Source of the DNA: a phage | DNA: 64,000 bases | Sequence record: PZ347661.1 | Strand: one strand, 5' to 3' | Translations under genes and position numbers: made by a program | Notes under the pieces: model-generated | Seen by the model: only the letters and a program-made list of their open reading frames with translations | Told to the model about the DNA's origin: nothing | Database searches by the model: none | In this document: piece by piece, positions 1-4,925 of the stretch | Layout of the letters: the number at the start of each line of letters is the position of its first letter | Numbering within the stretch: position 1 is the stretch's first letter

Positions 1-34
1 GTGAGGGCTTTCTTGTATATATAGGAGAGTAAAA

Positions 35-349
35 ATGACCCAGAAATTACGTGTATGGCACATCCCCCAAGTGCCAATGAAGGCATTTCATGTAGAGACT
101 GATAGTCTTCAGGAAGCTGTTAAGATTAAGAATGCGCTAGCAGACTACGATCTATTCCAATATGAGAACAACGTCAAAGGCGATTATGCTAATGCTAACG
201 GTATTGAGATGTGGGATGAGTCCCTCACTGACCAAGACCTTATTGATATGGAATTGGATGACCGTTGGGTAGATTGGTATATTGAAACTGAAGAATATTT
301 CTTTGATGACCCAGAAGAGTATCTGAATTATCTAGCCAAGCAAGTATGA
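35..349 (+). CDS. hypothetical strongly acidic small protein
   Basis: 104-aa ORF; roughly 24 Asp/Glu against about 8 basic residues; terminator immediately downstream. Confidence 0.45.
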   Translation: MTQKLRVWHIPQVPMKAFHVETDSLQEAVKIKNALADYDLFQYENNVKGDYANANGIEMWDESLTDQDLIDMELDDRWVDWYIETEEYFFDDPEEYLNYLAKQV

Positions 350-395
350 TTGCTTTATTTGGGGCTATAAACCCTGAAATAAAACCCTCAAGTTT

Positions 396-425
396 GACCT
401 CCCTATTGAAGGGAGGTCTTTTTTT
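396..425 (+). terminator. rho-independent terminator
   Basis: GACCTCCC-tattgaa-GGGAGGTC stem-loop followed by a T7 run. Confidence 0.7.
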
Positions 426-450
426 GACTTAAACATCCTGGAGCCAGGAA

Positions 451-639
451 ATGTATAAAGAGATTGCATTTTTCTCATTCTTACTTGGTGGTTTAATAGG
501 TGCAGGAATTGTAGCTATTTCTAATACCTACTTTGGTTCTACTCCAAACTCTCTAACACAAACCCTCAAGCATGAATGTGAATTGAATATCCCTCGTAAT
601 CAAAACTGTGTAATGCAGTTCGTACCGGAGAAAAAATGA
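451..639 (+). CDS. small membrane protein (hypothetical)
   Basis: 62-aa ORF with one hydrophobic helix IAFFSFLLGGLIGAGIVAI. Confidence 0.35.
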   Translation: MYKEIAFFSFLLGGLIGAGIVAISNTYFGSTPNSLTQTLKHECELNIPRNQNCVMQFVPEKK

Positions 640-896
640 ATATTCATAACCTACGTTTGGTTGAAAAACTGTATGAAGAATACAACGACAACCGGCAGCA
701 ATTAGCTAGTTTGAAGAAGTCACCACATATGGTGAAAGTATCATTCAATGATACGGATTTAGGACTACAAGCCCGTACAAGAATACTTCCTGAACTACTG
801 TCCTTTTATCAAAAGAGGATTGCTGTTTTAGAAAAACGCTTTGAGCATTTAGGCGTAGATTTATCACCACTCCCAGATGAAGGAGAAGAAGAGTGA
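636..896 (+). CDS. hypothetical protein
   Basis: 86-aa ORF, start overlaps upstream stop, same-strand operon context. Confidence 0.4.
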   Translation: MNIHNLRLVEKLYEEYNDNRQQLASLKKSPHMVKVSFNDTDLGLQARTRILPELLSFYQKRIAVLEKRFEHLGVDLSPLPDEGEEE

Positions 897-1102
897 AAGT
901 AACAAATCGTTCTGAGAACAATGAGGTAACTTTCGGTGATGTAGAGCCTGCTAATGGTTTTATTTATAACCAGACAGTGTGTCTAAAGATTCACTTACCT
1001 GAAGGTAAACCTGCTGCTGTTGCTGTAGAAACTGGCAAATCATTCTATCTATCAGCAAATACATATGTAACACCAATAAACCTGGAAGGATATTACCTTT
1101 GA
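893..1102 (+). CDS. hypothetical protein
   Basis: 69-aa ORF, 4-nt overlap with upstream gene. Confidence 0.35.
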   Translation: MKVTNRSENNEVTFGDVEPANGFIYNQTVCLKIHLPEGKPAAVAVETGKSFYLSANTYVTPINLEGYYL

Positions 1103-1284
1103 AACTTACCCAGTCCCAAGCAATCTTCCTTCGTATGGTTCAAGGTGGTTCTGCCACCAGCAACCGTAATAACAAAACCGCACAGTCTCTTAAGAAGCTG
1201 GGCTTAGTACAGTTCAATACTGGTCTTGGGTGGTCATTAACCCCTATCGGTGTACTTCAACTTAACGAAATGAAAGGTAACTAA
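1099..1284 (+). CDS. hypothetical protein
   Basis: 61-aa ORF, 4-nt overlap with upstream gene. Confidence 0.35.
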   Translation: MKLTQSQAIFLRMVQGGSATSNRNNKTAQSLKKLGLVQFNTGLGWSLTPIGVLQLNEMKGN

Positions 1285-1614
1285 ATGAAAACTTTACTTA
1301 AAGGTATTGCAGTAGCCGCACTGATAGCTTTGGCCCCAAGTGCACAAGCAATTGAACCAGAACCAATTCTGGAAGGTGCTCAGGCTTATCTGGATGACAC
1401 CCGTGATGCGTTCGGGCAAGGATTCTTCATGGGCAGTATGATCTCTTATATCGAGAGTACAAATAATTGCGTTCCTGAAGGTGTTAAGTATTCAGTCATT
1501 CTGCCTAAGATTGTCAAAGTAGTTATTTATGACTCTGCAATTCTCAAATTGAAGAATACATCTCAAATTGTTGTGTACTCAGTACACAAGGCATATCCCT
1601 GCACTAAATCTTAA
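1285..1614 (+). CDS. secreted/periplasmic small protein (signal peptide)
   Basis: N-terminus MKTLLKGIAVAALIALAPSAQA has n/h/c regions and an AQA-I cleavage-like site; 109 aa. Confidence 0.45.
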   Translation: MKTLLKGIAVAALIALAPSAQAIEPEPILEGAQAYLDDTRDAFGQGFFMGSMISYIESTNNCVPEGVKYSVILPKIVKVVIYDSAILKLKNTSQIVVYSVHKAYPCTKS

Positions 1615-1648
1615 TCAGTAATTCCATTAGCTTTAGGAGAGTAAGTAA

Positions 1649-2701
1649 ATGGCAAGCATTGACTCCTTGACTGTATGTAATTCACGTCAAGCTCGTAACT
1701 TTATTATCCGTGCCCTGAAAGCAGGTAACGTACCATTCCTGACTTCATCACCGGGCATGGGTAAATCTGCAATCATTCGTTCTATTGCAGAAGAATTTGG
1801 TATGAAGCTGATAGACCATCGTCTGTCTACTTCTGCTCCAGAAGACCTTTCTGGCTTACCATTCCGCAATGGTGACCGTGCAGAGTTTATCCCATTCGCT
1901 GACTTATTTCCTATTGAAGGGGATGCTGTACCGAAGGGTTATAATGGCTGGCTCCTGTTCCTCGATGAGTTCAACTCAGCTAAGAAAGAAGTAGTAGCTG
2001 CTGCATACAAACTGATTCTCGACCGTATGACTGGTCAGAAAAAACTACATCCTAATGTGATGATTGTCTGTGCAGGTAACAAAGCTACTGACCGTGCCAT
2101 TGTTAACCCACTGGGTACTGCAATGCAGTCCCGTGTGGTTCACTTCGAAATGGAACTTAACTTCGACATCTTTGTTGAAGACGTAATGATTCCTCAGCAA
2201 TGGGATGAACGTCTGGTTGCATTCTTACATGCTAACCCCGGTTACCTGCATGACTTCGACCCGGCACATAAGAACAAAACATTCTGTTGTCCTCGTACCT
2301 GGGACTTTGTTAACAAAGACCTCAAGAACTTGCCAGAAGGTGCTCTGCCTGATGAAGATTCTATCTACTATGCAGGTCACGTTACTGCTGGTAAGGCTAC
2401 AGAATTTGTTCAGTTTACCCAGGTGTACAATCGTATCATTACGATTGAGAAGGTAGTCAAAGACCCACTGGGCTGTGCACTACCGGATGATAACAACCTG
2501 TGTTGGGCTACTGTTAACCATCTGGCTAACAAAACTACTGAAGAGAACTTTGTTGATGTTCTTCGGTATATTGAACGCTTTAAAACGTTCACCCATAGGA
2601 TTCTATACTTCCGTACAGTAGGCAATGCATTACCAGATCTTCAGGCTACCCCTGAATGGCGTAAGGCTGCTGCTAATATCTCTCGCTACATTCACGGATA
2701 A
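1649..2701 (+). CDS. MoxR-like AAA+ ATPase
   Basis: Walker A SPGMGKSAI, Walker B LLFLDEFN, MoxR/AAA_5-like length of 350 aa. Confidence 0.75.
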   Translation: MASIDSLTVCNSRQARNFIIRALKAGNVPFLTSSPGMGKSAIIRSIAEEFGMKLIDHRLSTSAPEDLSGLPFRNGDRAEFIPFADLFPIEGDAVPKGYNGWLLFLDEFNSAKKEVVAAAYKLILDRMTGQKKLHPNVMIVCAGNKATDRAIVNPLGTAMQSRVVHFEMELNFDIFVEDVMIPQQWDERLVAFLHANPGYLHDFDPAHKNKTFCCPRTWDFVNKDLKNLPEGALPDEDSIYYAGHVTAGKATEFVQFTQVYNRIITIEKVVKDPLGCALPDDNNLCWATVNHLANKTTEENFVDVLRYIERFKTFTHRILYFRTVGNALPDLQATPEWRKAAANISRYIHG

Positions 2702-4609: not shown

Positions 4610-4682
4610 GTAGCTGCCTAAATAGCCCAACATAGTTGGGCTATTTGTGAAGAAACTAACTCAACCTCACATAGGAACCATC

Positions 4683-4925
4683 ATGGAATCTTTAGCAGCA
4701 ATCCTTGTTTTCTTATTCATATTGGCTGTATACCTTATCCCTACTATCATTGCTTTTTCACGAGGCCATGTCTCTAAGTGGGGCATTGGTGTACTCAATA
4801 TCGTATTAGGCTGGTCACTGGTATTCTGGGTAGTAGCACTGATTTGGTCACTGTCCAACAAAGGGCAGAACCAGGTTACAAATGTAACCGTTGTTCAAAC
4901 CAATGGTGGCAGTAAAACAGAGTAA
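4683..4925 (+). CDS. superinfection-immunity (Imm)-like two-TM membrane protein
   Basis: YLIPTIIAFSRGH...LNIVLGWSLVFWVVALIWSL resembles the Imm-family pattern; two TM helices; ATG 4683 chosen (GGA upstream). Confidence 0.5.
   Translation: MESLAAILVFLFILAVYLIPTIIAFSRGHVSKWGIGVLNIVLGWSLVFWVVALIWSLSNKGQNQVTNVTVVQTNGGSKTE

Follow-up and report, generated by a model that had tools for sequence, protein, structure and literature searches.

What does a phage gain from a small, strongly acidic protein whose gene many of its close relatives do without? This question is raised by an open reading frame (ORF) near the start of a stretch of phage DNA, 64,000 nucleotides long (sequence record PZ347661.1), which is called the window below. 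A preliminary description, made from the letters of the sequence, read the product as a candidate DNA mimic of the Ocr kind or anti-restriction protein. In our analysis the best explanation overall is that the protein is the ortholog of N4 gp18 and P22 gp17 and a probable counter-defence factor, a reading to which we give a probability of about 0.6. The features of the locus are as follows.

1..15, + strand: 3' arm (GAGGGC) of an upstream hairpin with its T-rich tail; the 5' arm precedes the start of the window
23..27, + strand: Shine-Dalgarno-like AGGAG, 7 nt 5' of the ATG, as read from the sequence
35..349, + strand: coding sequence of the gp17-like protein, with ATG start, 104 aa plus stop codon (PF17420 / PHROG 1510)
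44..214, + strand: conserved N-terminal module, codons 4-60, beta-beta-alpha-loop-beta in the AlphaFold model
215..319, + strand: acidic, faster-evolving half, codons 61-95, with 16 Asp/Glu in 35 residues
396..425, + strand: intrinsic terminator, GACCTCCCT-ATTGA-AGGGAGGTC followed by T7

The first 5 kb of the window are Gamaleyavirus-like (similar to G7C, IME11, and St11Ph5, which are N4-like coliphages of the Schitoviridae), with 90-94% nucleotide identity, and the closest match to this part is vB_EcoP_PE007. The window also contains a 3611-aa virion RNA polymerase ORF, which is typical of N4-like phages. The gp17-like ORF comes straight after the capsid-decoration gene (the homolog of N4 gp17), and downstream of its slot is a block encoding an AAA ATPase, a VWA-like protein, and dCTP deaminase. 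With a dN/dS of 0.24 against the St11Ph5 ortholog, ORF 35..349 is a genuine gene under purifying selection. The AGGAG motif in front of it is also kept in the alignment with St11Ph5 and the N4-like phage OLB145. A sigma-70 scan found no coding-strand promoter near the gene, the 17 nt upstream of the start codon are not a repeated promoter motif within the window, and an Rfam search of window positions 1..1700 returned nothing meaningful.

The composition that first drew attention to the ORF is as the preliminary description gave it, 104 aa with about 23% Asp/Glu. There are 13 Asp and 11 Glu (24/104 = 23.1%) and eight Lys plus Arg (7.7%), and the computed pI and net charge are 4.09 and about -16. 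The window has 126 ORFs of 60 aa or more, and this one is the most acidic of them. The clustering of the acidic residues also holds, residues 61-95 having 16 acidic residues and one basic residue in 35. The highest Kyte-Doolittle value in a 19-residue window is 0.06 and the GRAVY is -0.67; the protein is soluble.

What had been overlooked is that the protein belongs to a known family. It matches Pfam PF17420 ('GP17') with E = 1.1e-46 (157.4 bits against a cut-off of 25), from residue 4 to 101 of the protein and from position 2 to 97 of the 98 profile positions, and it matches PHROG 1510 with E = 1.1e-50. The statement that sequence-level evidence ends with composition is therefore wrong. The P22 gene 17 product (including the original entry, X15637) is 66% identical to the protein over 101 residues, and the two genes have 72% nucleotide identity over 239 nt in phages that are otherwise unrelated. 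The homolog in PE007 is 94% identical. In N4 the slot after the capsid-decoration gene holds gp18, with the annotation 'similar to P22 gp17', so that the window ORF is the positional ortholog of N4 gp18. Membership in the PF17420 (P22 gp17 / N4 gp18) family is thus virtually certain. Searches with the protein in NCBIfam and PADLOC gave no match. The RefSeq records of St11Ph5, IME11, U1G, and PGN829.1 already name the gene 'superinfection exclusion'. With annotations already on record for the nearest relatives and for N4, under a Pfam family, the gene is a well-catalogued and ordinary family member.

The terminator beyond the ORF begins 46 nt past its stop codon. Its stem (396-418) has 9 bp, six of them G-C pairs, and is followed by T7 at 419-425; the fold energy has z = -4.3, and none of 200 shuffles folds equally well. 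The preliminary description took it as the ORF's own. It is a real terminator, but one that belongs to the slot as a whole rather than to the gp17-like gene, since the same element is found directly 3' of the capsid-decoration gene in ECBP1 and PhAPEC5, both of which have no such ORF. The PhAPEC5 record annotates this element as the terminator of the capsid-decoration gene. The hairpin upstream of the ORF reads AGCCCTC-loop-GAGGGCTTTCTTG in the alignment of St11Ph5 and OLB145, and in relatives it comes after the capsid-decoration gene; folded by itself, the St11Ph5 copy does not reach significance (z = -1.2). To judge from these alignments, the ORF behaves together with this hairpin (3' arm at window 1-10) as a cassette, ~370 bp long, inserted before the terminator.

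Gamaleyavirus genomes vary in what they carry in the slot between the capsid-decoration gene and the terminator, an accessory site (regions compared: window 1-450; ECBP1, L002:1470-1610; Bp4, L003:1030-1530; PhAPEC5, L018:1191-1300). About one quarter of the related Gamaleyavirus records carry the gp17-like gene there. The slot is empty in ECBP1, PhAPEC5, and Bas96, and G7C has no nucleotide match to the gene. In Bp4 the slot holds an unrelated 86-aa hydrophobic ORF (orf75) instead. An hmmsearch of the six-frame translation of the whole Bas96 genome, with the window as positive control, found no PF17420-family member.

The region beyond the terminator is also made of small genes. Four back-to-back ORFs (62, 86, 69, and 61 aa) lie at 451-1284 (+); all belong to PHROGs of unknown function and their presence is patchy among relatives. 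They are followed at 1285-1614 (+) by a 109-aa ORF with an N-terminal signal-peptide-like sequence (MKTLLKGIAVAALIALAPSAQA), which has no Pfam match at E <= 0.001 and falls in PHROG 11132, of no known function. Several relatives have 'tai4' or 'Rap1a' (type VI amidase immunity) annotated in the corresponding region, a correspondence of region and not an established match to the same ORF.

Where is the family conserved? In an alignment of 38 diverse members, 15 residues are invariant, and all of them are present in the window protein. Fourteen of the 15 are in the N-terminal module (R6, V7, W8, P11, Q12, F18, L35, Y38, D39, F41, Q42, K48, D50, and G56) and the fifteenth is W78. The near-invariant motifs are RVWHIPQVP, YDxFQ, and KxDYxNxxG (IKPDYxNxxG). 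Codons 1-60 have a dN/dS of 0.08, and the C-terminal half has one of 0.44. Many distant members match only positions ~2-65 of the PF17420 profile, the alignment with Kuttervirus homologs stops at residue 80, and residues ~63-73 are deleted in the alignment in four members (P0103, P0114, P0118, and P0120). Acidity is nevertheless retained: 103 close homologs have a mean Asp+Glu content of 22.5% and a mean net charge of -14.6, and among 148 representatives of 50% clusters the median pI is 4.4, with only five above 6. In the acidic half it is negative charge, rather than sequence, that is conserved across the family.

The AlphaFold2 model made from the 38-sequence alignment (mean pLDDT 93.5, pTM 0.82) predicts, with confidence, a compact alpha/beta fold, with strands at 5-10, 18-22, 54-60, and 78-80 and helices at 25-44, 66-71, and 93-103. 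A Foldseek search of the model against the PDB gave nothing significant (best E = 0.47, ERH), and against BFVD it returned family members only. A sequence search of the PDB found no solved structure for the family, the best match being a 374-aa hypothetical protein with E = 0.049.

As to function, P22 gp17 is reported to be required if the phage is to overcome exclusion by the Fels-2 prophage (Semerjian 1989, cited in PMC6486243 and PMC9409062). In P22 the order of the early PL operon is ral-orf78-orf67-17-cIII-kil-arf-erf-abc1-abc2, and E. coli lambdoid prophages have the equivalent order N-GP17-cIII-kil-RecT. The PL-operon surroundings of gene 17 are a neighbourhood of host-takeover and anti-nuclease genes. 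A counter-defence role is the probable one for the gp17 family. In such a role, the infecting phage would make a soluble, cytoplasmic, strongly acidic alpha/beta protein, which would neutralize an abortive-infection ('exclusion') function encoded by the host or by a prophage, and the Gamaleyavirus ortholog would do in E. coli the same kind of work as P22 gp17. The protein may act as a stoichiometric protein inhibitor or decoy. The invariant N-terminal module would make the specific contact with the target, the fast-evolving acidic half may supply electrostatic, possibly nucleic-acid-like, contacts, and the target class might be an AbiU/AIPR-type protein.

Some points weigh against this role. 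The sole experimental datum is the P22 phenotype of 1989, known from citing papers, and the occurrence of the family in very diverse phages, including those of Bacillus, could equally mean a conserved host target. A literature search found no functional data for N4 gp18 or the Gamaleyavirus copies, and for PF17420, phrog_1510, gp17 anti-defence, and N4 gp18 it found no mechanistic study. In its broad form, the idea in the preliminary description, that a small acidic protein assists the phage in facing host immunity, agrees with the reports on P22 gp17; the specific Ocr-like mechanism is not supported, and homology to Ocr or ArdA is lacking. The presence or absence of the cassette could affect host range on lysogens, which would matter for phage therapy.

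Which defence might Fels-2 carry? In the Fels-2 genome (NC_010463), STM2723.1 encodes a 565-aa protein in a cargo position adjoining the portal gene (L007:22639-24336, - strand). It matches AbiU in PADLOC (2.7e-112), AIPR in Pfam (8.8e-43), and an abortive-infection (Abi) family in PHROGs (1.6e-150). PADLOC found no match for four other Fels-2 cargo ORFs, including that of the neighbouring 243-aa STM2726. By these profile matches, STM2723.1 is the sole recognizable defence gene among the Fels-2 cargo ORFs tested. Since the only recognizable defence gene is AbiU/AIPR, the simplest hypothesis is that the gp17 family neutralizes AbiU/AIPR abortive infection. The AbiU of lactococci is predicted to be nuclease-like, and its effect is a delay in phage transcription (PMC13064643). 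We infer AbiU as the target of the gp17 family in a tentative way, as a possible but still doubtful assignment. It turns the phenotype of 1989 into a candidate pair of defence and anti-defence genes. No paper linking gp17 and AbiU was found in the PMC open-access subset and bioRxiv. Close DNA homologs of the Fels-2 AbiU gene are present in seven of 5426 complete E. coli genomes, a number that neither supports nor refutes the lead; because the gene is so rare in E. coli, the natural target in the host of the window phage may be different.

The E. coli copies are of interest by themselves. Six genomes, four of them from chickens, have the Fels-2 AbiU gene at 97% nucleotide identity, and one further copy is 84% identical. 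The copies at 97% identity indicate, as far as sequence comparison goes, that the AbiU/AIPR cargo gene was recently exchanged between Salmonella and E. coli.

The PF17420 family is large. A profile search over 1.84 billion representatives gives 1163 clusters at 50% identity with E <= 1e-3 (739 with E <= 1e-10), and 325 deposited phage records carry a member. Among the deposited phages are P22-like, Stx, N4-like, and Kuttervirus and other Ackermannviridae phages, together with phages of Serratia, Klebsiella, Erwinia, and Pectobacterium and some Bacillus phages.

The family also has longer variants. In one subfamily of ~154 aa (e.g., P0009, P0024, P0028, P0031, P0045, and a metagenomic N4-like contig, L008:3001-3465), a conserved N-terminal extension of 50 residues is fused to the GP17 domain. 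The extension has a Walker-A-like motif, GAxxxGKS/T, followed by RLMxEIKEKC. The protein sequence of the extension is conserved between members with an overall identity of 60-70%, so that it is probably coding; a complete NTPase would have to be far longer. In some longer members (P0157, P0226, and P0177) the GP17 domain is fused to Phage_gp49_66 (the family of N4 gp49 and Sf6 gene 66), to DUF6166, or to a region like the C-terminal domain of the RNA polymerase alpha subunit, the last being a sub-threshold match. These fusions gave no functional clue.

The breadth of the family, with its 1163 clusters and its Bacillus members, bears on the strongest alternative to counter-defence, namely that the protein has a host-takeover or other non-defence role. 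Its N-terminal module would then bind a conserved component of the host or the phage (e.g., a nuclease, a polymerase, or a chaperone), and the Fels-2 phenotype would be indirect. A near-invariant core motif of polar and aromatic residues suits a conserved target better than an arms-race interface. The PHROGs category is 'moron, auxiliary metabolic gene and host takeover', and the fusions to Phage_gp49_66 and DUF6166, small phage domains that are unrelated, agree with such a role. However, many close relatives dispense with the gene, which therefore fits a conditional function that depends on host genotype, and the only phenotype recorded in the papers that cite the P22 work depends on a prophage. 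We regard host takeover as unlikely.

The next alternative is the one from which the question started. As an Ocr-like mimic, the protein would imitate B-form DNA with its acidic surface, titrate type I restriction-modification (RM) or BREX, and so shield the incoming genome. Its 104 aa, pI of 4.09, and 23.1% Asp+Glu fit the loose profile of a mimic, a profile that is not specific to mimics, and the negative charge is kept across PF17420. The carriers N4 and AlfredRasser are reported to have no detectable RM sensitivity, and Bas96, which lacks the gene, is reported with 'detectable sensitivity to some systems'; this is a weak correlation of three phages that is confounded by genus. Even so, Bas96 is still reported as considerably RM-resistant without the gene. 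A Pfam scan of the protein at E <= 10 gives GP17 alone, with neither Ocr nor ArdA, and in hhalign the family profile and T7 Ocr are matched with a probability of only 0.2%. The invariant residues are concentrated in the half that is not acidic, and the acidic stretch is partly deleted in some members, which weighs against a rigid mimic surface. The published structure of T7 Ocr is an all-alpha fold. The predicted fold class of the gp17-like protein differs from it, and the model does not show the elongated all-alpha dimer by which Ocr-type proteins mimic bent B-DNA. P22 has a separate gene annotated for antirestriction, ral, three genes from gene 17, and its gp17 phenotype, as cited, concerns a prophage exclusion system. 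The Ocr-like, anti-restriction claim is thus not borne out, and we consider it improbable.

A wider form of the mimicry idea is that PF17420 is a widespread nucleic-acid-mimicking decoy against nuclease-type defences, including AbiU/AIPR of the Fels-2 kind and perhaps restriction enzymes. This would explain part of the restriction resistance of N4-like phages, and AbiU would then have a second inhibitor, and a very common one. It is a speculative proposal, and distinctly improbable.

What of the database name? 'Superinfection exclusion protein' is an inverted name for the gp17 family, because P22 gp17 is required to overcome Fels-2 exclusion; the genetics, as reported in the citing papers, are the opposite of the name. 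The misleading name is propagating to hundreds of phage records. The record of one relative even reads 'superinfection exclusion protein A'. The window has a separate gene that would fit the name.

4647..4925, + strand: Imm-family membrane protein, 92 aa (PF14373 Imm_superinfect, E = 2.9e-16)

By this match it is the candidate for the real superinfection-immunity gene of the genome. That the gp17-like protein itself guards the infected cell from secondary phage infection is very improbable, even though PF17420, PHROG 1510, and the RefSeq records of the nearest relatives carry the name and a superinfection-exclusion system of N4 is, according to PMC12642591, still to be identified: P22 gp17 is cited as needed to escape exclusion and not to exclude, the annotated exclusion genes of P22 are sieB (beside gene 17) and sieA (PMC4837284), the protein lacks both a signal peptide and a transmembrane segment, unlike proteins of the Imm/Sp/SieA type, its hydropathy maximum being 0.06, PADLOC does not recognize it, and the Imm-family gene lies elsewhere in the window.

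Surt, a Vibrio-phage protein, is the one validated anti-AbiU protein (bioRxiv 10.1101/2024.06.14.598830); should the AbiU lead be correct, Surt and the gp17-like protein would act against one class of defence. It differs in being 195 aa long and unrelated in sequence; an hhalign probability of 0.3% rules out Surt as a GP17 homolog. A search for GP17 motifs in the available part of the supplementary files of that preprint found no GP17-family sequence.

T7 Ocr (gp0.3), the archetype of the DNA-mimic anti-restriction proteins, is, like the window protein, a small, very acidic, non-structural protein encoded by a phage, with 29% Asp+Glu and a pI of 4.05, compared with 23% and 4.09. However, the window protein is predicted to be alpha/beta, is unrelated to Ocr in sequence, and has about half of its net charge. 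Unlike the gene for Ocr, the window gene is not the first to enter the cell. A restriction phenotype is reported for the Ocr class and none for the gp17-like protein.

P22 gp17, the founding member of PF17420, has the same length, invariant residues, and acidity as the window protein, and among gp17-family members the Fels-2 phenotype is reported for P22 only. P22 is a temperate lambdoid phage in which gene 17 is expressed as part of the PL operon, alongside ral and cIII. The window phage, by contrast, is a virulent N4-like phage, and its gene stands as a cassette of its own in the middle region, flanked by a hairpin on either side. The nearest counterpart in position is N4 gp18, which has 104 aa, is ~61-63% identical, and lies after the decoration gene gp17 and before the gp24 ATPase block. 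N4 belongs to a different genus (Enquatrovirus), in which the gene is near-invariant (16 records at >=98.7% identity), whereas in Gamaleyavirus it is found in only about one record in four.
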